From NCBI GenBank assembly GCA_000442015.1, contig KE561045.1, positions 56,453 through 76,452 on the forward strand: a stretch of 20,000 nucleotides of DNA. Direction: 5' to 3'. Position numbers and translations under genes: made by a program. The stretch comes from Rozella allomycis CSF55. Its lineage: Eukaryota. This document shows, one piece after another, positions 5,984 to 16,632 of this stretch (its first letter is position 1; the number at the start of each line of letters is the position of its first letter). Below the pieces are notes generated by a model. The model was not told where the DNA came from. It did not search any database and saw only the letters and a program-made list of their open reading frames with translations.

Positions 5984-6089
5984 CCAATAAATTATTNAAA
6001 AGGAATGCATCATTGATTCTGAAAAGACTAGCATAAGCATTTAAAACAAATATGTGTTTGGATTTAGAAGCTTTGTTAGGCTTGGCAAC

Positions 6090-7619
6090 ATGTCTATTCC
6101 GTTTTGCAACATTTGCGTCTTAGAGAATGTCCATCTAGATATAACAGCTTCGGAGGTGTGTCAAATAATAAATGATGGATTTAAAAAAGCTCCATATGGT
6201 CTGCAGGCATCAGCAGAAGTGTTTGCAGTGTTTACGGAACCATCGGGTGTAAAATATGCATTGTTTTCTTGGAACACCGGGCCTAGATTCGATATGCTAA
6301 ATGAAGAACGCAGCACGTGGTCCCTTTTTCAGTACAAAAAACGTGCATATAGATACTATGCTCGACCCGAGAAAGATCGGCACAGAAAGTTTTTTGAAGC
6401 TTGTGTTTCAGCGCCGGCATATTTGTATGTTGAATTTGAAAGAGAAGCCATCACCTTTGAACAGTTAGTTGCAAAGTCTAAGGAGCTTTCTGGCCTTCTT
6501 ATGGTGCACAAGGTTTTCTTTCACACCCAAGATTTGCTAAGTGAAGAGGTGTTGAATATTCTAAAGTTCTCTCTTAATGCGTCCTTCCAAAGTGTGCGAG
6601 ATTTAGTGAAAGTGCACTTTGAAAGTGATGAAAATGTTCCTCTTGATTCACATTTTCTACAATTTTTGTCTCCTGAGGACCAAGATAAAGTTCTAAGAAA
6701 CGATAATTACATGCATGCTATTAGAGATGGTATTGTTGATGTTCCCTTTAACCCATCAGAGAACAGGGGTGCCACGATTGTAGAGAGCGCCTTTAAAAGT
6801 GAAGTTGACCAAATGGCAGCAACGCACAAACGTCTATTTGCCAACGAATTGAAGATTGTGCAGAATTTGGTTCCTTATTCGTTGCTCGAAAAATGTACAT
6901 CAGGAGACGATGCGTCAATTCACAACGGGCATTACTTTAATCCTTTGGAAGTCGGCAAAAGTTTGGTAGGTCTTAGTGTGAAGTCTGCAGAAAATTTTGG
7001 CATACCAGGAATAACCATAGCAAACTCGTTCCTAAAGTTGCACGACAACATTTATAGGACAGTGACTTTATTGGAGGGGAATGTTTCAGAGTCGTATATT
7101 CGAGGGAATTTCACGTCTTTATTAGTAGATGCATTTACGCCTTGGTTGTTGGATAAAGACCAGAAGCCAAATGTCGTTCTTCGTGAGTATGATTCCAAGG
7201 TCACGTGGTGGACTCGAAGCCATATGCAAATGTGGGATGCCTCCATCCATTGTATAGACAAAAAAACAAAGGTGCGAAGAGAACCAGTGCTGATAGTTGA
7301 GGAAAAAACCGTTGGGTACAGTCCATCGAACATTATGACATCGAATGTTCCGATTGAAAAATACAACACCAATAATGCGGACATGTTAAAAAATCTTCGG
7401 GCAGCGAAAATGTTATTATTGAGAAGAGCTGATAAAGATGCGCTTCAAGTAGCCGTGCTTTTCCAGGGTTTTGAATACAGAATTTTCTTTTGTTCTTTGC
7501 TATCGAACAATGTTTGTGTTGCGACAGAAGTGTGCAGTGAAACTTTAGTTGATGAAAAATTAAAAAGCAAGCCAACATATCAAAACTTTTATCAATCAAT
7601 CCTTCCTACTNAAAGGTGA
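6090..7619 (+). CDS. Hypothetical protein with C-terminal PD-(D/E)xK (restriction endonuclease-like) motif; 3' end uncertain because of N at 7611
   Basis: Uninterrupted ORF of ~510 codons. First ATG is at 6090; a weak 26-nt intron at 6054-6079 could instead form a split AT|G start. Motifs WDASI...PVLIVEEKT, DMLKNLRAAKMLL and VAVLFQGFEYRIFF resemble REase-fold domains of Crinkler-type proteins. Family assignment is by eye. Confidence 0.55.
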   Translation: MSIPFCNICVLENVHLDITASEVCQIINDGFKKAPYGLQASAEVFAVFTEPSGVKYALFSWNTGPRFDMLNEERSTWSLFQYKKRAYRYYARPEKDRHRKFFEACVSAPAYLYVEFEREAITFEQLVAKSKELSGLLMVHKVFFHTQDLLSEEVLNILKFSLNASFQSVRDLVKVHFESDENVPLDSHFLQFLSPEDQDKVLRNDNYMHAIRDGIVDVPFNPSENRGATIVESAFKSEVDQMAATHKRLFANELKIVQNLVPYSLLEKCTSGDDASIHNGHYFNPLEVGKSLVGLSVKSAENFGIPGITIANSFLKLHDNIYRTVTLLEGNVSESYIRGNFTSLLVDAFTPWLLDKDQKPNVVLREYDSKVTWWTRSHMQMWDASIHCIDKKTKVRREPVLIVEEKTVGYSPSNIMTSNVPIEKYNTNNADMLKNLRAAKMLLLRRADKDALQVAVLFQGFEYRIFFCSLLSNNVCVATEVCSETLVDEKLKSKPTYQNFYQSILPTXR

Positions 7620-9571: not shown

Positions 9572-11798
9572 ATGAATTCCAGAGATAAATTTGCTAAACG
9601 TCAAAATGTAAAAATCATGATTTTTTAAAACTCAGATAAATTGTTTTGATATCTCTAAAGACTTGGCAGCAAATGGACTTCGAATTGTTGGTTCTTATGC
9701 ATTGGGAAACGTGATCGGCGAAGGTACGAGATTCAAGTGGATTATATAGGCTCTTTTGGTAAAGTAAAAGATGCAAGACACATTTATACAAATACCAAAG
9801 TATTCATATTTTTGAGTCCAAGATAGGTGGCAATTAAAATAATCGACAAGATGTATTTACCGGTGGTCGAAAGAGAAATTGATGGGTGGAAAAAGTTAAA
9901 GCACAAATATATATCCCAACTATTTGAAGTATTTACTACAGAGACAAAAATATACCTTGTTATGGAATATGCATGTAATGGCGAGATTTTCGACTATCTT
10001 GTTGCAAGGAAAAGACTGGATGAAAACGAAGGAAAAAGACTTTTTAAACAACTTGCGCAGGCGATTGAATACTGCCATTCAATTAATATAATTCATAGGT
10101 ATTAATTGATTTCTTTGTTTAACAGAGATTTAAAGTTAGAAAATATTCTTCTTGATGAAAATTGGAATATAAAATTAATAGATTTTGGATTTATAAAAGA
10201 AACTGACGGAAAAAGTTTAATGGATACACATTGTGGCTCATTAGCCTATTCTGCCCCTGGTATAATTGTTAATCAAATAGAATATAGAAATGATTCAAGG
10301 AAAGAAATATACAGGATTTGAGGTTGATATTTGGTCACTAGGAGTTATTCTTTACACGTTATGTCTTGGATTCTTGCCATTTGATGATGATAATGAGAAC
10401 ATTCTGCAACAGAAAATTTTGCAGGGTGTCGTGGAATTCCCTTCTGATATTTCAGTTTCAGAAGAATTAAAAAATTTAATTACATTAATGCTTCAAACAG
10501 ATTCAAAAGCTAGGCCAAGTATTACAGATGTTCTTTCACATTCTTGGCTGCAAGATGAAAAGAAGTTTTCGAATAACAATGCTTATGACAATACAGTTGA
10601 TTCCATTATAAAAGTCCCTTTTATAGATAATAATAAAATAAATGATGAAGAAGAATGCAAATTAGATGAAAAACTAATCGACCAAATACAAGAGCTTTTT
10701 GGTGATGATTCTTTCAAACTAAAAGATCATTTGATGGAAAATAAAGTTAATTCGTACACCACTCTATATTATTTGCTAAAGAAAAAGAGGTCACTCTCCA
10801 AATTGTCTCCAATGTCGCCTAATGAAGAATCCTCTCCCTTAACTCCTGCGATTGATTCCCAAAAGCCTATGCAATTTTCATTCGAGATACCTAGCGGTGG
10901 TTTGGATATGTCTCAATTTTTGTCATCGAAACTTGAGCCCAAAAGAAAGAATGGTGGAAATCAGCCACTTGCATTATTGAAATCAAAAGGGAAGAATTTT
11001 GGATCTGATTCAAAGCCTAAATTTTCATCAAGCACTGTTCAGAATATAATCAGTGAAGAAAACGAAGAAGATTTGGACAAAAAGTCATCATCAACAGAGT
11101 CAATTTCATCTGTAGTCATGTCATCGGCATTTAACAGTAACGAAAACATTTCTATTAATGTTTTTTCAACAACGAAAACCACTCCTGAAGTGCCTGCCAA
11201 GCCTAGCAAGGAACCCAAAAAATCAAAATTGTTTATTTCTACAACCTGTCATGACAATGAATCTGATGTTTCTTCTGTAAATTCAGAGACGAAGCCTCCG
11301 ATCAAATACCAGAAAGATGTCGCCAGCCATTTGACAGTTATCCAGACGAATTTTTCGAGTACCAAAGAAACGCTTTCAGAGATCAATTCTATACTAGTGA
11401 GTCTAGGAATAAAGTATAAATCATACGCCAACAAGTTCTTTTGTTTGGCCAAGTTGTCGCTCCAGACCAATAGTGGAATGAACGTTGGCATGTACCATTC
11501 TCACCGACGAAAATCTGATAGTTTCTTGGACACCCAGATTAGAGATCAATTGGTAGCCAAGACTAATTTTGCAGAGCCGTTTTCAAAGTATAATGGCAGC
11601 CAAAAAATGTTGGGAGAAGAATTGAAGGAGGATGTCAGGACTGAAAATATAAGGTTTGAAATTCAGATAATCAAAGAAAAGAAGAATTATGGGATAAAGT
11701 TTAAGAGGATATCAGGAGAGCAGTGGCATTATAAGAGCATATGTGATCAAGTGTTGAATAAACTGCATCAGAGTGTCAATCAAAACAGCGGCATGTAA
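9572..11798 (+). CDS. CAMKL (MARK/Kin1/SNF1-related) Ser/Thr kinase with C-terminal KA1 domain, ~696 aa
   Basis: Exons 9572-9607, 9636-9723, 9750-9799, 9827-10098, 10126-10259, 10288-11798 (introns 28, 26, 27, 27, 28 nt). Splicing restores IGEGSFGKV, VAIK, HRDLKLEN, DFG, THCGSLAYSAPE and DIWSLG. KA1-like end: IRFEIQIIK...GIKFKRISGEQWHYKSICDQVL. Exon 1 is less certain. Confidence 0.9.
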
Positions 11799-11882
11799 TC
11801 ATTATAACGAATAAAACATAAATTGTATCTTTGCATGTTTTCATTGAACTTGAATTTCTTTGTTTCCTATTTGTAAATTTAC

Positions 11883-12295
11883 ATGATTATGGCGGATGTT
11901 GGAACATATTACAAGGATGTCCAATTTCTGTTACAGAGTGAATTTACACCGCCATCAATGAGAATTGATCCTGAAGAAAGGTTTTTGCAAGAGCGAGCAC
12001 AGATTATACCCAAACTGCCTTCAGTTAGAGATTTTGAGACTATAGTGCATGAAGAACACAAAGTAACTAGTAATTTTAATGGTTAGGGTAGGAGGTGAAA
12101 ATATATGAGCGACCACAGGCTCATTCGAGTAAAGTAGAAGAAAAAGAGGAGAGTAGAGAAAGAGGGTGTGAGAGTGTTCAATNAGGGTGTGAAAGTGTTC
12201 AATTGACTGATACCGAGATGGAGGCGGAATTTTACCATGTATTGAAGCAAGTGACCGAGGAGCATTTTAAAGCAGACATAACTTTAAAACAGTGA
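11883..12295 (+). CDS. Hypothetical protein, ~127 aa, spanning an N gap
   Basis: ORF-track frames 11883-12086 and 12095-12295 are joined in frame by a 29-nt GTAACT...GTAG intron (12063-12091). No recognisable domain. Confidence 0.5.
12163..12203. repeat. Direct repeat AGGGTGTGA(G/A)AGTGTTCAAT on both sides of N12183
   Basis: 12163-12182 and 12184-12203 match at 19/20. Either a collapsed 21-bp minisatellite or a contig-overlap artefact. Confidence 0.7.
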
Positions 12296-12345
12296 GTAAC
12301 TTGAAAACAGAAAACTTAAATAAACCCAAAGATTTTCCAAGCCAC

Positions 12346-15300
12346 ATGAAAAATTTAAGAGTTTGTTCTACGACTTTTGAATCATTTGAGGGTTCTGTGA
12401 GTGAGGGGTTTATTGTATATACGTATGATAAAAATGCGAGTTATTTGTACCGCGAGAGTGACGGCTGGTATTTGCTGGACAAGGGTGGTAGAATCAAGTT
12501 GGAGCTACCGAATGAGAGTATAGTTTCTGCGCGATATTTGTATTTGAAGGAGAGTGTGTGGGTGTGTTTTGTTGGTGGAGAGATGTATTTAGTGAATAGC
12601 GGGTATGAGAGTGAGTTTGTTGGGAAGATTGAAGGGGGGATTAGATGTGGGAGTACGAGTCCAGATTCTGAGATAATTGCGGTTGTTAGTGGAGATTATT
12701 TGATGATAGTGATGAATTGTGAGTTTGATGTGATAGTTGAGAAGAGTGTGTTGGATGAAGAGGAGAAGGATGCGTTTGTGCAGCTTGGATGGGGGCGAAA
12801 GGAGACGCAGTTTCATGGACGTGCTGGCAAGGAGGCTGCTGTTGAGAAGCGGGAGAGTGTTGATGGGAGTGTTAGTGAGGAGGATGATGGGAGGGTGAGG
12901 ATATCGTGGCGAGGGGATGGAGAGTATTTTTGTGTGAGTTTGATTGAGCCTGTGAGAGTGAAGAGAAGTTTGCGGGTGTTTGATAGGGAGGGTAATTTGA
13001 GGAACAAGAGTGAGGATGTAAAGTATCTTGAGCATTCGCTGGGGTGGAAGTAAGATGTTGATGTAGTTGAGATAGACCGAATGGTAGTTTGATAGCGAGT
13101 ACGCAGAATACGCCCAAGGGAAAGCAGGTTGTGTTTTTTGAGAGGAATGGATTGAGACATGGAGAGTTTGTGTTGAGGGATGATTATTCTGTGTGTGAGA
13201 TTGAATGGAACAATGATAGTTCGTTGTTGCTGTTGGTTTGTGCAAAGGAGGCAGAGTTTAAGTGTAAGGATGATTTGTTTGTGTGAGATAGTGAAGATTT
13301 ATGGGAGTAGCAATTATTATTGGTATTTGAAGCAAGAAGTGAAGATTGATGGAAGAATAATGGATGTGAAGTTTAGTGTAGAAGATAAAAATGTGTTGAA
13401 TATTTTAACAGACAAGGGGATTGAGATGATTGAATTTGAAGAGAAATATTTTAGTGTTGAATCGCGTGTGTTTGTGATTGATGGAAAGAGATTGTTAGAG
13501 ACTGATTATGCAAAGGCGAATATTCCCCCACCGTTTAGTCAAATTGAATATGAAATGAGAGATGTTGTAAAATGTGTTGAATTTAATGAAAATGTTTTTG
13601 TAATTTTACAAGATCAAACCCTTGTCAATTGTGTTACGAAAGAAGAAATATTTAGATTTGAAGGATGTGAAATTAATTGTTTTTCAGTTTTATCAAAAGA
13701 TGAATTTTTGTTGTTTGATTCAAGAAAGAAAGAATTGATTTATTTTAATAGAATTGATTTGATTAAAGTTGGAATGAAGCAAGACATTTTAAACTTTAAA
13801 GGAGAATATTTTCAAACCAAGCAAAGTGTAAACAAAGTTAGAGTTAGAAGGGAAAGGGGAGTTGAAAGAGAAGGGGGAGTTAAAGGTGAAGCATCAATGG
13901 AAGTAGAAGGTGAAGCATCAATAGAAGTAGACGGTACAGCATCAGTAGAAGAATCATCAAATGTTCAAGTTGTTTCAATTCAAATCGTTTATGAATGCAA
14001 TTTCAGAATTGATGATTTCTTTATTAAAGATGAAAAAGTAATTTTGAAAAATAAAGGAAAAATCTTTATTGGAGATTTTCTTTTGATTGAGAATATTAGA
14101 CAAATCTTTTCTACAAGGGATTATTTAATCTTTATAACATTTGAAAATGAATTAATCTTTTATGATTTCAATGAAGATTTTTATGAATTTGAAGATAAAT
14201 TAAAAATAGAAAATGAAATGAGAAAAAGATTAGTTGAAAAAGGTGCCATGATTGTTTGTTATATAAATGATGGCTTAGTCCTTCAAATGCCACGTGGTAA
14301 TCTAGAAACTATATATCCTAGATCTATAGTCATCCTAGCAATTCAAAATGAAATTAAAAACAAAAATTATCTAAAAGCTTTTGAAATGTGTAGAAGACAC
14401 AGAATAGATCTCAACTACCTTGTAGATTACCAGGATATAGATTTGAATCTATTTTCTACACAAATCACTAAAACTGAATATTTAAATCTTTTTATTTCAA
14501 ATCTGAAAAATGATAAATCTAGTTTACAAAAATATTCTTTTCAAAATGAAGATCTATCAGATCCAGAAAAGATTAACAGAATCTGTTCCAAACTGATGGT
14601 TCTATTAAATGATAAAACTGAATGTATTTTGACTTGTCTGGTTAAATTAAACAGAATTGAAGATGCTTTGAAATTAATTCTTAAACATGAAAACAATTCA
14701 AGAGAGAAAATGATTGAATATTTAGTCTTTCTAGTCAACGTTGATTTCTTATTCAATTTAGCCCTTGGCATCTACAATCTAGAATTGGTTCTTTTAGTGG
14801 CTAAATTCTCTCAAAAAGATCCAAAAGAATATCTTCCATTCTTAAACAAAATTAAATCTATCCAAGATTCAAATCTACAAAAATTTCACATCGATGATCA
14901 TCTAAAGAAACACAAAAAAGCTTTATCACATCTCTTCTCTTACTTTGAATCTTCAAATGATTTCTCTCTATTCCAAAATTACACTAAATCTCACAATCTA
15001 TTTTTAGATGCAATCAATCTATCCCAAAATCATCCAAATCTTTTAAATTCAATTCTCATTGATTACGCTAATTCTACTTCTGGTTCCATAGATTCGGCTA
15101 ATGCTTTCTTCTTATCTAACGAAATTTCTCAATCTATAGATCAATTTGTAAACATGGGTTGTTACAAGGAAGCTCTAATTTTAGCTTCATCGAAAGATCA
15201 AGAAAAATCAATCTGTGCAAAATCTATTCCCATTCTCTTGGATCAACACAGAAAAGTTGAAGCAGCTTACCTGTCTTTAGATTACTTGAACGATGTTGAT

Positions 15301-15948
15301 TCTTGCATTCTCTATCTCTCACAAGAAAACAAATGGATGGATTCGTGGCGTATCGCTAAATCTAAAAATAGACTCGATTTAATTGAAACAATCGTTCATC
15401 CCTCAATCATCGCTTCCTTTGATTCCTTCATTGAGCAAATTAATGAACTAAAAGAAAACTTTATCAAAAAATCAAATAGAATTGAAATCATCAGAAACAA
15501 GAAAGAATCAAATGTCGAAGGTATTGAATTTCTGCCTGACACAGCTTCAATGATCACTGGGCTCACAATCTCCCAAATAACAAACAGTACTCGCAGAACC
15601 GCTAAATCTAGAAGAAAAGAACTAAGACAGAGATTAAGAGGCAGAGAAGGCACTCCCTACGAAGAAGAATACATTCTTCTAACAATCAAAGGGTACTTTG
15701 AGAAATTCAATGATCTCAAACCTCAAATATCATCACTCTCTAGATGTCTCCTATTCATTAACCATAGAGAGAAATCTACCAGCCTCGAAAATGCATTCTT
15801 AAGTCTGGGAAATTTATTAAATGAAAAGAGAAACGCTCTTTTTGTTCATCCAAATAATCCTATTCCGAAACCTGAAGATAAGAAACCTATTGATGTGCCA
15901 AAGGAATTGAACAATGAGTGGAATAGTAAAGTCATTTCTTCCTTTTAA
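12346..15948 (+). CDS. ELP1: Elongator complex protein 1 (Elp1/Iki3/IKAP), ~1182 aa
   Basis: Starts MKNLRV. Exons 12346-13049, 13076-13263, 13292-15948 (introns 26, 28 nt). Motifs VQLGWGRKETQFHGRAGK, ISWRGDGEYF, WKPNGSLIAS, FFERNGLRHGEF, NYYWYLKQ, VLQMPRGNLETIYPR, SQKDPKEYLPFL and the basic tRNA-binding region RRTAKSRRKELRQRLRGREGTPYEEEY. Confidence 0.97.
13849..13956 (+). repeat. In-frame coding minisatellites in ELP1 (2 x 18 bp, then 3 x 24 bp)
   Basis: agggaaaggggagttgaa / agagaagggggagttaaa, then ggtgaagcatcaatggaagtagaa / ggtgaagcatcaatagaagtagac / ggtacagcatcagtagaagaatca. They encode RERGVE REGGVK GEASMEVE GEASIEVD GTASVEES. Confidence 0.85.
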
Positions 15949-16087
15949 ATAAACTACTTTTTAATTAATTGAAAATTGAAATNAAATTGAAATTATTGAG
16001 ATAATTCATTCTTTTATTGATTTAAATCGTTCAGAAAAAGAATAAATTGAATTTAAAATTAAAAATGAAATTGTATTCGCTGCAAGC

Positions 16088-16091
16088 AAAA
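16088..16091 (-). terminator. Pol III terminator (TTTT) immediately after tRNA-Asp
   Basis: AAAA on the + strand directly abuts the discriminator base. Confidence 0.7.
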
Positions 16092-16163
16092 CTCTTCGTC
16101 GGGGAATCGAACCCCGGTCTTCCGCGTGACAGGCGGAGATACTCACCTCTGTACTAACGAAGA
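16092..16163 (-). tRNA. tRNA-Asp (anticodon GTC), intronless
   Basis: Reverse complement TCTTCGTTAGTACAGAGGTGAGTATCTCCGCCTGTCACGCGGAAGACCGGGGTTCGATTCCCCGACGAAGAG. Acceptor stem TCTTCGT/ACGAAGA, anticodon arm TCCGC-CTGTCAC-GCGGA, T arm CGGGG-TTCGATT-CCCCG, discriminator G. Confidence 0.97.
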
Positions 16164-16326
16164 TGTGTTATGGGCTAAGTGGTTAAAGTAATAACAAGAG
16201 AACATCTCTTCAGAAAGTTCGCAATCTCCAATGCAGATGGCAATTTATCAATTTATAGTTTAAAAGTATATATCAAATTGCAAGATTTATTTTGTCACGT
16301 CAAGTTTGTCTATTTATCAGCAATAA

Positions 16327-16632
16327 TTAGTTGATGTACTTTTCCACATCATCCGACAGCTGCAACGAACTCAACCGAGCAGCCACCCCACCTAGTCACC
16401 CAACCCATATTACATTACACGTCTGCTTGCTATTCCTATGCTCCATCCATTCCTTTATCTGCCCAAGCGCCTCTTCCGGCGCATACACCACATTCCCGTC
16501 CTCGTCGAAATACCACGCTTCAGGGTCGAAATACTCTTCTTCAAATGCGTCCGACATTGTTGGTACCTGCATGTGCCAGTCCAGTTCTTCTAGCTCTGCG
16601 CTCGTAAATCCAAAGTTATTGGGTTCGGCCAT
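16327..16632 (-). CDS. Small acidic hypothetical protein, 92 aa
   Basis: ATG at 16632 preceded by AAAA. Exon 16632-16419, 27-nt GTAATG...CTAG intron (16418-16392), exon 16391-16327. Protein: MAEPNNFGFTSAELEELDWHMQVPTMSDAFEEEYFDPEAWYFDEDGNVVYAPEEALGQIKEWMEHRNSKQTCGVAARLSSLQLSDDVEKYIN*. GC is higher than in the flanks. Confidence 0.65.

Follow-up and report, generated by a model that had tools for sequence, protein, structure and literature searches.

The stretch of DNA analysed here (the window) comprises 20,000 nucleotides of Rozella allomycis CSF55 and is gene-dense, with about nine genes. One of them is ELP1, a single gene on the + strand whose three exons, once spliced, translate into 1182 amino acids. 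The annotated IKI3/ELP1 protein of the same strain (P0001) matches at 100% in both parts searched (exon 1 and residues 299-1182), and all five of the five ELP1 Pfam domains were found. The gene and a neighbouring tRNA gene are laid out as follows:

12346..13049, + strand: ELP1 exon 1, start codon at 12346; translation matches P0001 at 100%; first beta-propeller (PF04762, E=1.4e-49)
13050..13075, + strand: ELP1 intron 1, 26 nt, GT..AG; G9 T9 A8 C0
13076..13263, + strand: ELP1 exon 2; the spliced coding sequence (CDS) of 1182 aa equals P0001 in length
13264..13291, + strand: ELP1 intron 2, 28 nt, GT..AG; T11 G10 A7 C0
13292..15948, + strand: ELP1 exon 3, stop codon TAA at 15946-15948; 100% match to P0001
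16092..16163, - strand: tRNA-Asp(GTC) gene (ARAGORN; Rfam RF00005, 60.9 bits)

Splicing out the first intron restores the conserved motif KPNGSLIASTQ. Exon 3 encodes the second beta-propeller, the alpha-solenoid, the TPR and the three-helix bundle, and the Pfam matches place the boundary between the two propellers at 13.36-13.47 kb. The nearest relatives share 41-45% identity with exon 1, and in the remainder identity is about 31-33%; the top matches of exon 1 are early-diverging fungi (Endogone 42%, Thoreauomyces 41%, Dichotomocladium 45%), as are those of the remaining protein. The tRNA-Asp gene is convergent with ELP1 and begins 144 bp past its stop codon, and is context only as far as the skew is concerned. 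An Rfam scan returned no family besides this tRNA.

Base composition changes strongly along the gene, and three zones can be distinguished:

12430..13540, + strand: keto-rich block of ~1.1 kb, roughly the first beta-propeller; G 35%, T 30%, A 27%, C 7%; GC skew +0.67
13541..14700, + strand: AT-rich middle zone, GC 0.24-0.30; third-position purines are 11-21% G and third-position pyrimidines 6-28% C
14701..15900, + strand: mirror zone; at third positions, C is 38% of pyrimidines and G 17% of purines (C:G 87:28)

In 500-bp sliding windows, GC skew peaks at +0.741 (12501-13000), changes sign near 14.3-14.5 kb, where GC content is at its minimum (0.24), and reaches its most negative value, -0.391, at 14751-15250. 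The background, taken from 144 windows outside 11-16 kb, has a mean of 0.024 (sd 0.137, range -0.32 to +0.28). A sequence-only reading of this DNA had reported a skew reversal inside one gene on one strand, and these values bear it out, as the ELP1 frame is continuous over 1182 aa. Its four hand counts are exact (12541-12600, 23 G/1 C; 12841-12900, 32 G/1 C; 14881-14940, 14 C/4 G; 14941-15000, 14 C/2 G). It had put the start of the nearly C-free stretch at ~12.1 kb, which holds from ~12.43 kb onwards; further upstream the spacer is normal, save for a 60-nt patch at 12134-12193.

Change points set the edges of the block at ~12.43 kb and 13.34-13.54 kb. Its onset is abrupt and lies ~0.1 kb inside the CDS, downstream of the ATG; in the spacer (11.8-12.43 kb), the 60-nt patch aside, G/(A+G) is.28-.50 and C/(C+T).21-.43. 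Within 0.1-0.5 kb on either side the flanks are near baseline, be it the upstream spacer, the 3' end of the kinase gene or the DNA past 15.95 kb. At the 3' edge, G enrichment drops fairly sharply (from.76 to.21 over about 400 bp), and C depletion runs past this drop to ~13.8 kb (change points 13785 vs 13542, ~250 bp apart). Overall, purine and pyrimidine change points are 0.25-1.2 kb apart, with purines switching at 13.54 kb and pyrimidines at 13.8 and 14.7 kb. In the middle zone both G and C are at or under baseline, and the mirror zone (the 3' 1.2 kb) is a weaker reverse of the block, enriched in C and depleted of G.

Such a pattern could in principle be an assembly or sequencing artefact, for example a chimeric join or a damaged template, and the window does have a single N at each of five places, 12183 among them. 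We give this next to no credence. Between 0.77 and 0.95 of the 31-mers sampled from 12000-16000 recur in contigs of 7 of the 15 runs listed (from four studies, 2014-2018; one of the seven may be the source sample). Moreover, frame, splice sites and ELP1 domain order continue across every change of composition, and these changes are gradual over hundreds of bases.

The bias is present at sites free of constraint from the protein. As a baseline we used the third codon positions of the other genes of the window (n=3368: A.317, C.133, G.187, T.363). In the block, these positions stand at A.12, C.02, G.46 and T.40; G:C is 118:5 and GC skew +0.92. Among purines the share of G is 78% (baseline 37%), and among pyrimidines that of C is 5-8% (baseline 27%), while purines as a class barely move (.50 in the baseline, only.58 in the block). 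Both ends of the gene depart from the baseline: 5 C among 123 G+C third positions in the block (P=8e-22) and 28 G among 115 in the 3' part (P=1e-13). Codon choice follows suit. In the block (12450-13550), AAG outnumbers AAA 23 to 3 and GAG outnumbers GAA 31 to 9, with TTG 19, TTA 3 and CTN 6 for leucine and AGT 21 vs TCN 7 for serine; in the 3' part (14251-15900) the preferences are AAA 42/AAG 6, GAA 33/GAG 4, CTN 46/TTG 6 and TCN 47/AGY 4. Counted over everything after the block, AAA:AAG goes from 3:23 to 59:9 and GAA:GAG from 9:31 to 63:5. Only 7 of the 100 two-fold, pyrimidine-ending codons of the block end in C, and the two introns together have no C and 19 G in 54 nt. The synonymous shifts from AGT to TCT and from TTG to CTA/CTC and the C-free introns were thus noticed correctly from the letters alone, and so was the point that the bias is not codon selection on the protein: third positions, both introns and amino-acid usage are all affected.

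Selection of another kind might still keep the stretch C-free, the transcript or its G-free template having a function of its own. In one variant, RNA polymerase II would be paced by the supply of CTP in a nucleotide-scavenging parasite; in another, avoidance of A-ending codons would free the first third of the mRNA for the Elongator scaffold from Elongator-modified tRNAs. The sharp edges inside the CDS and the coincidence of the block with one protein domain fit this view, as do the A-ending codons, which rise from 12% in the block to about 40-45% after it. CTP-linked avoidance of C has also been put forward as an adaptive reading of fungal intragenic skews (PMC3315797). We nevertheless consider selection for a C-free stretch rather unlikely, since codon-level selection leaves unexplained both the C-free introns and the preference for T- over C-ending codons. 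RNA structure gives no signal, |z| staying below 1.7 in each of the 20 windows (200 nt) examined, and the Rfam result adds no candidate family. The relatives of ELP1, at the identities given above, are too distant for a conservation test. It is distinctly unlikely that the C-free kilobase is a selected module, be it one that ties the advance of the polymerase, or the formation of R-loops, to the supply of nucleotides, or an autoregulatory codon switch in ELP1.

The bias has reshaped the protein. Residues that require C make up 9.7% of the block, compared with 22.7 +/- 4.0% (minimum 15.8%) in 23 orthologues, and the use of proline, histidine, glutamine, threonine and alanine is halved in a beta-propeller that must still work. 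None of the 23 orthologues shares this amino-acid bias, as the sequence-only reading expected. At the same time, 113 of 177 conserved columns in the block (64%) are identical to the orthologue consensus, and judging by these columns the block is still under purifying selection. For this reason, the bias must have accumulated slowly and not by a single hit. Polarising the replacements at conserved columns gives 12.9 losses of C vs 2.8 gains, and 6.7 A>G vs 6.0 G>A, which lends weak support to the direction of mutation that we infer, with the neighbouring genes as baseline, in what follows.

These results bear on the idea of a one-off event, be it that foreign DNA took the place of the 5' part of ELP1, that a hypermutated or edited copy did so (through gene conversion from an edited cDNA), or that repeat-induced point mutation (RIP) struck it. 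Discrete edges ~1.1 kb apart are of the size of a conversion tract. Yet foreign DNA is at odds with exon 1 matching early-diverging fungi first, like the rest of the protein, and we know of no genome with the G3/T3 usage of the block. An edited cDNA would not leave introns that are still present and are themselves biased, and a single saturating hit would not allow the open frame and 64% of the conserved columns to be kept. RIP in fungi targets duplicated DNA, prefers CpA and destroys genes. Like RIP, the ELP1 pattern has runs of C->T on one strand that can switch strand along the sequence; unlike RIP, it lacks the CpA/TpA signature, A->G is dominant and the gene is intact. In particular, TpA is at 0.60 of expectation and TpG, at 1.26, is not depleted; by the customary thresholds of the RIP indices, neither TpA/ApT (55/93 = 0.59) nor (CpA+TpG)/(ApC+GpT) (171/125 = 1.37) indicates a CpA->TpA preference. 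Nor does the locus look duplicated and inactivated: the frame is open, the protein conserved, and a tandem-repeat scan of 11500-16500 found short repeats only. Altogether, a one-off event is most improbable.

The geometry of the two lobes raises the question of replication. Forks might converge or stall at a fixed place, for example at the head-on tRNA-Asp gene, and the lagging-strand template would then be + to the left of that place and - to its right; alternatively, the AT trough might contain an origin or centromere. The G+T excess does switch strand, from + on the left to - on the right, across an AT-rich minimum. tRNA genes are polar fork barriers in yeast, and this one is transcribed towards ELP1. 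However, the new skew sign is not kept over long flanks: the composition is back near baseline in the upstream spacer, at the kinase 3' end and past 15.95 kb. The strongest skew is 1-2 kb off the switch point instead of adjoining it, and purines and pyrimidines switch at different places. By the usual leading-strand rule, a change from + to - is opposite in sign to an origin and resembles a terminus. Known centromeres with a skew flip and an AT trough are those of the Candida/Yarrowia type; here the trough (13.6-14.7 kb) codes for ELP1 and its surroundings are gene-dense, which sets it apart from known regional centromeres, and a gene-free or gene-poor core of several kb is not present. We thus regard replication asymmetry as improbable, and the earlier proposal of a process of the origin, terminus or centromere type centred near 14.2 kb gives way to a discrete 1.1-kb block inside the CDS, with normal flanks and a coding trough.

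A recurrent double-strand-break (recombination) hotspot in the middle of the gene would give the same strand geometry, as 5'-3' resection would leave + single-stranded to the left of the break and - to its right, and deamination would follow. The kilobase scale is that of resection tracts, and yeast and tumours are known to have strand-coordinated clusters in which C gives way to G across a break. The bias should then peak beside the break, whereas the middle 1.2 kb is the least skewed part, the extreme block is 0.8-1.9 kb off and its distal edge is sharp. In addition, the lobes are very unequal (+0.74 vs -0.39), and GC content is lowest where biased gene conversion should have raised it. This makes a break hotspot decidedly improbable.

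In our view, the ELP1 pattern looks like the scar of a long-lasting mutation process acting on one strand, and not like an error or a replication landmark. The reading we favour, with a probability of about 0.4 and so short of even odds, is that, in the promoter-proximal kilobase, mutation of the non-template strand favoured A->G and C->T, as would arise from persistent single-strandedness such as that of an R-loop. Strand-specific transitions would have accumulated on the coding strand over the first ~1.1-1.4 kb of the ELP1 transcription unit. Both A->G and C->T would be strongly favoured, the pair of changes expected from deamination of adenine and cytosine in single-stranded DNA. The most likely cause would be long displacement of the non-template strand during transcription, for example in a promoter-proximal R-loop. 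Such a process might reinforce itself, as a G-rich, C-poor transcript would pair more stably with its template, and this would account for a runaway in this gene and not in those next to it. Purifying selection would have retained the residues that are needed (e.g. GWGRKETQFHG), so that the bias filled synonymous sites, introns and tolerant residues. Of the candidates named earlier, single-strandedness with deamination fits best, though placed in the promoter-proximal kilobase of the coding strand and not at ~14.2 kb.

Several results argue for this transcription-linked transition bias. Since the introns are biased and the 0.6-kb upstream spacer is not, the bias lies within the transcribed region, starting ~0.1 kb after the ATG. 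The arithmetic of the step from baseline third positions to those of the block fits transitions alone, the purine class being nearly constant, and the excess of G+T on the non-template strand is found at the unconstrained sites (third positions and introns). In position, strand and length (A->G spans ~1.1 kb, C->T ~1.4 kb), the bias agrees with the mammalian pattern. That C depletion outlasts G enrichment on the 3' side is expected if the faster deamination of C saturates at lower exposure. G clusters of the type that initiates R-loops (defined as in QmRLFS-finder) occur three times in the 20 kb, both strands counted, and two of them are inside the block, as is the highest G density of the window (0.46 per 200 nt, 0.41 per 500 nt). 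The second G-richest patch (16396-16632, - strand) likewise lies where an ORF begins, and the G-rich strand is the coding one (G3 41%). Slow, long-lived action would agree with the conserved columns kept while C-requiring residues fell. Finally, C/(C+T) is greater in the 3' half in six of the seven other genes of the window, significantly in one. The same-sign gradient in other long genes that might have spoken against a local process is thus a weak tendency among these seven.

Other results count against it. None of the seven genes approaches the amplitude of ELP1, and the purine trend is inconsistent: G/(A+G) falls from 5' to 3' in four of the seven, significantly in none, and the kinase gene shows the opposite (p=0.03). 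High transcription would not be expected of ELP1. The sharp 3' edge of G enrichment coincides with the boundary between the beta-propellers, and decay with distance from the transcription start site (TSS) need not respect a domain boundary. At the 5' edge the order is reversed, with A->G saturated already (.78) while C/(C+T) is still.25. A G-rich zone of 0.5-2 kb with G clusters near the start is what an R-loop zone should look like and is what we find, but the G residues are dispersed (GG at 0.65 of expectation) and the block has no canonical G-quadruplex motif. The polarisation of A>G against G>A is weak. Moreover, G->A and T->C on the + strand, the mirror bias of the 3' part, would require the opposite strand to be exposed there; sense transcription leaves it unexplained, which counts against the R-loop reading.

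Several known systems can be compared with ELP1. As described by Polak, Querfurth & Arndt (2010, PMC2927911) for vertebrate genes, the non-template strand in mammals has [A->G]/[T->C] above 1 along transcripts, and [C->T]/[G->A] exceeds 1 no further than 1-2 kb from the TSS. This asymmetry resembles ELP1 in strand, in both transition directions, in G+T excess and in its kilobase scale at the 5' end. It differs in that ELP1 is a single gene at a GC skew of +0.74, with A->G limited to the block and the 3' part reversed, and mammalian skews are small when averaged across thousands of genes. In fungi, McLean & Tirosh (PMC3315797) describe an intragenic gradient, C-biased at the 5' and G-biased at the 3' end and extending into promoters, as a genome-wide average that is strongest in Candida; the authors attribute it to mutation specific to phases of transcription or to avoidance of C. 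Rozella seems to be absent from the data set as presented there. ELP1 shares with this gradient the opposite skews at the two ends, the effect on degenerate sites and the altered amino-acid usage, but its sign is reversed and its upstream spacer normal.

GC-skewed R-loop zones include CpG-island promoters and immunoglobulin switch regions, which are mostly non-coding or repetitive. They span 0.5-2 kb past the promoter and, like ELP1, have a G-rich, C-poor non-template strand with G clusters at the start. Unlike them, the ELP1 block codes for a conserved beta-propeller, has dispersed G residues and is known here from sequence alone. The heavy (H) strand of animal mitochondria shows gradients of single-strand deamination in which C->T saturates first and proteins are reshaped. 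ELP1 combines C->T and A->G in the same way, with C->T saturating first and amino-acid composition following the skew. The mitochondrial process, on the other hand, is replication-linked, organellar and genome-wide, and the ELP1 pattern is a 1-kb patch in a nuclear gene.

A literature search on skew, codon usage and strand asymmetry in Rozella or microsporidia (supplements aside) returned only mitochondrial or unrelated papers. Strand asymmetries of nuclear genes as a rule emerge only once many genes are averaged. In ELP1 the asymmetry is visible in a single conserved gene, and its skew is on a par with that of the most biased mitochondrial genomes. If mutational, it would be a natural record, built up over a long time, of DNA kept single-stranded in a eukaryotic chromosome, probably by an R-loop, and it would allow one to see directly how far a constrained protein yields to local mutation pressure. 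Should many genes of Rozella carry such blocks, this would be an undescribed property of the genome, and would matter for phylogenomic work on Cryptomycota and Microsporidia, in which trees are misled by compositional bias.

The window comes from a 76-kb contig of Rozella allomycis CSF55, and the region around ELP1 is gene-dense. The spliced gene at 12346-15948 encodes exactly P0001, a 1182-aa protein of this strain annotated as 'IKI3 domain-containing protein / Elongator complex protein 1'. The five Pfam domains of ELP1 are all there, in order: the first and second beta-propellers, the alpha-solenoid, the TPR and the three-helix bundle. The gene and its surroundings are as follows.

12346-13049, 13076-13263 and 13292-15948, + strand: ELP1 exons, a spliced frame without stops, 1182 aa
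13050-13075 (26 nt) and 13264-13291 (28 nt), + strand: ELP1 introns, both beginning GTAAG and finishing GATAG
16092-16163, - strand: tRNA-Asp(GTC) gene, convergent with ELP1, 144 bp past the ELP1 stop
Genes 3' of ELP1: the tRNA-Asp gene, a small ORF and an MCM gene
Other neighbours: a Sel1-repeat gene, a tyrosinase fragment, Fip1, a large WD40 gene and a family-less ORF
Further neighbours: a class I/II aminotransferase gene (by our reading a 5-aminolevulinate synthase) and a KA1-domain kinase

An open frame of 524 codons at 6045-7619 (+) has no Pfam match at E<=0.001. Single N characters occur at five positions in the window (5997, 7611, 12183, 15983 and 17254).

The sequence-only reading had described an extreme reversal of GC skew within ELP1, and this is confirmed by the skew profile, third codon positions, introns and synonymous usage. 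In 500-bp sliding windows, skew peaks at +0.741 (12501-13000), passes through zero near 14.3-14.5 kb, where GC content has its minimum of 0.24, and falls to -0.391 at 14751-15250. Elsewhere in the window the 500-bp skew has a mean of 0.024 (sd 0.137, range -0.32 to +0.28). Third positions of the other genes served as the baseline (A.317, C.133, G.187, T.363; n=3368). Against it, the G:C ratio at third positions is 118:5 in codons 51-300 (P=8e-22) and 28:87 at 14650-15849 (P=1e-13). The four hand counts of G and C behind the earlier reading were exact on recount, and neither intron contains a single C, as it had said. The synonymous flip also stands: AAG, GAG, TTG and AGT prevail early in the gene, and AAA, GAA, CTN and TCN late.

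To locate the edges we pooled third positions, introns and spacers, which are free of protein constraint, in bins of 60 sites. The 0.6-kb spacer 5' of ELP1 is ordinary except for a single 60-nt C-poor patch (12134-12193), and the anomaly sets in abruptly at ~12.43 kb, ~0.1 kb into the coding sequence. Change-point fits gave a third-position G/(A+G) of 0.78 as far as 13335, 0.53 from there to 13542 and 0.17 beyond (baseline 0.37), and a C/(C+T) of 0.08 as far as 13785, 0.20 from there to 14727 and 0.38 beyond (baseline 0.27). This gives three regimes: a keto-rich, C-starved block (12.43-13.54 kb), in which A→G and C→T both look saturated, an AT-rich middle low in G and C, and a 3' zone with the opposite departure from the baseline (G→A, T→C). 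The purine class is nearly constant, moving from.50 to.58 in the block, and transitions alone account for almost all of the block's shift. If composition is at equilibrium, A→G would exceed G→A by ~3.5:1 in the block (0.6:1 in the baseline) and C→T would exceed T→C by ~12-19:1 (2.7:1), so that either ratio would have shifted roughly five- to seven-fold.

The regimes roughly follow the ELP1 domains (~12.35-13.36 kb for propeller 1, 13.47-14.26 kb for propeller 2 and 14.32-15.82 kb for the helical part); where the two propellers join, the G-rich block stops. Within the C-poor patch 5' of the gene lies a 21-nt direct duplication (12163-12203, 2.0 copies, 95% match), which includes the N at 12183. 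Nowhere in the window is G denser than in the block, which also contains two of the three G-cluster motifs; the block's G residues are dispersed, and no canonical G-quadruplex motif was found on either strand. The second G-richest patch is the coding strand of a small acidic ORF at 16396-16632 (-) (78 aa, starting MAEPNNFGF, no Pfam family; G3 41%, one G-cluster motif), which may be a milder instance of the same 5'-end bias.

An artefact appears extremely unlikely. Seven of the 15 public runs listed (four studies, 2014-2018) contain 0.77-0.95 of the sampled 31-mers of 12000-16000, matches to contigs that attest presence rather than contiguity, and one run may be the source sample; the reading frame, splice sites and domain order run unbroken through every change of composition. 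A foreign origin of the 5' part was ruled out by the best-match taxa: exon 1 finds early-diverging fungi on top (Endogone, Thoreauomyces and Dichotomocladium, 41-45% identity), in agreement with the rest of the protein. Among the matches listed, no ELP1 exceeds 45% identity in exon 1 or about 33% in the remainder. Two further readings were rejected, namely RIP, whose indices the block does not show, and a bisulfite-like process sparing C in CpG, as CpG observed/expected is 0.99 in the block (neither spared nor depleted). No folding signal of a structured RNA was seen in any of 20 windows, Rfam returned only the tRNA, and the block is not made up of tandem repeats, since a scan for them gave only short two-copy ones. 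An antisense ORF across the block (12589-13257, -, 222 aa, rich in Pro/Thr/His/Ser) has no counterpart in Pfam; a strand so poor in G excludes two of the three stop codons, so that a frame like this is to be expected by chance.

The bias reaches the protein. We aligned Rozella ELP1 with 23 fungal orthologues picked from 120 listed matches. In the block (residues 36-385), 9.7% of residues are of the kinds that require C (P, H, Q, T, A), compared with 22.7 +/- 4.0% in the orthologues (minimum 15.8%); in the segment that follows, the share is 7.7% (23.1 +/- 4.5%, minimum 14.9%). Residues whose codons start with G (V, A, D, E, G) amount to 21.6% of the 3' part (32.1 +/- 3.5%, minimum 24.7%). The fall in V and G along the protein is partly shared by the orthologues, as a difference between beta-propellers and helical repeats; in every comparison Rozella is outside their range. 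Conservation in the block is nonetheless good, with 113 of 177 conserved columns identical in Rozella (142 of 248 in the 3' part), and motifs such as GWGRKETQFHG retain C-containing codons. Since a saturating single event would not have left these intact, the bias must have been gradual, under purifying selection. A one-off replacement is accordingly highly unlikely, given the kept columns and the best-match taxa of exon 1. Replacements were polarised on 488 conserved columns against the 23 orthologues, a comparison of low power. The least conserved part is the second-propeller region (15 of 52 conserved columns kept) around 13841-13951, with a Gly/Glu/Val-rich stretch (…EGEASMEVEGEASIEVDG…) that arises from imperfect tandem repeats of 18 and 24 nt.

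For Lys, Glu and Gln, A-ending codons (AAA+GAA+CAA) number 14 against 58 G-ending ones (AAG+GAG+CAG) in the first third of the mRNA (counted over 12450-15900), 148 against 16 after it, and 414 against 189 in the window's other genes. In yeast, the A-ending codons rely on Elongator-modified tRNAs. Selection for a C-free transcript or template would account for the sharp edges and for this marked avoidance in the first third of the Elongator scaffold's own mRNA, but it leaves both the C-free introns and the preference for T over C unaccounted for, and we consider it rather unlikely.

Deamination of single-stranded DNA should leave both A→G and C→T on the same strand, the combination seen in the block. 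Here the biased strand is the non-template strand of ELP1, affected from shortly after the gene start for 1.1 kb (A→G) and 1.4 kb (C→T). The block's high G density and its G-cluster motifs also make a composition that favours R-loops. In mammals, the same two asymmetries occur on the non-template strand, with C→T limited to the first 1-2 kb (PMC2927911). Taken together, these points suggest that the block is the evolutionary footprint of persistent, possibly self-reinforcing displacement of the coding strand, a reading drawn from composition to which we give a probability of roughly 0.4. The coding strand would be kept displaced and thus single-stranded, its deamination would produce A→G and C→T, and displacement might in turn feed itself.

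Replication asymmetry, including the fixed origin or terminus suggested earlier, and double-strand breaks with resection both have the right strand geometry. Under them the bias would be expected to persist in the flanks or to peak at the switch point, and neither is found; we judge both unlikely, the latter slightly more so. The centromere also suggested is unlikely because the DNA is coding and gene-dense. Several observations speak against strand displacement as well. The neighbours show only a faint trend in this direction: C/(C+T) increases from 5' to 3' in six of seven genes, significantly in one, and their purine trend is inconsistent. The G enrichment has a sharp 3' edge at the two-propeller junction, G residues are not tightly clustered but dispersed, and the 3' mirror zone requires another cause. 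Antisense transcription is one candidate; events at the convergent tRNA-Asp gene are another. The tRNA gene could be a fork barrier, or could give rise to antisense events in the 3' end of ELP1, which is poor in G.

No account of strand asymmetry in the nuclear genome of Rozella turned up in our literature search. Two described phenomena come closest: the transcription-associated asymmetry of vertebrates has the strand and direction of the ELP1 block but is far weaker, while McLean & Tirosh describe an intragenic GC-skew gradient in unicellular fungi that alters amino-acid usage, as in ELP1, but is of opposite sign and reaches into promoters (PMC3315797). We class the block as a locus-level, near-saturated asymmetry of the non-template strand, reversed relative to other fungi.
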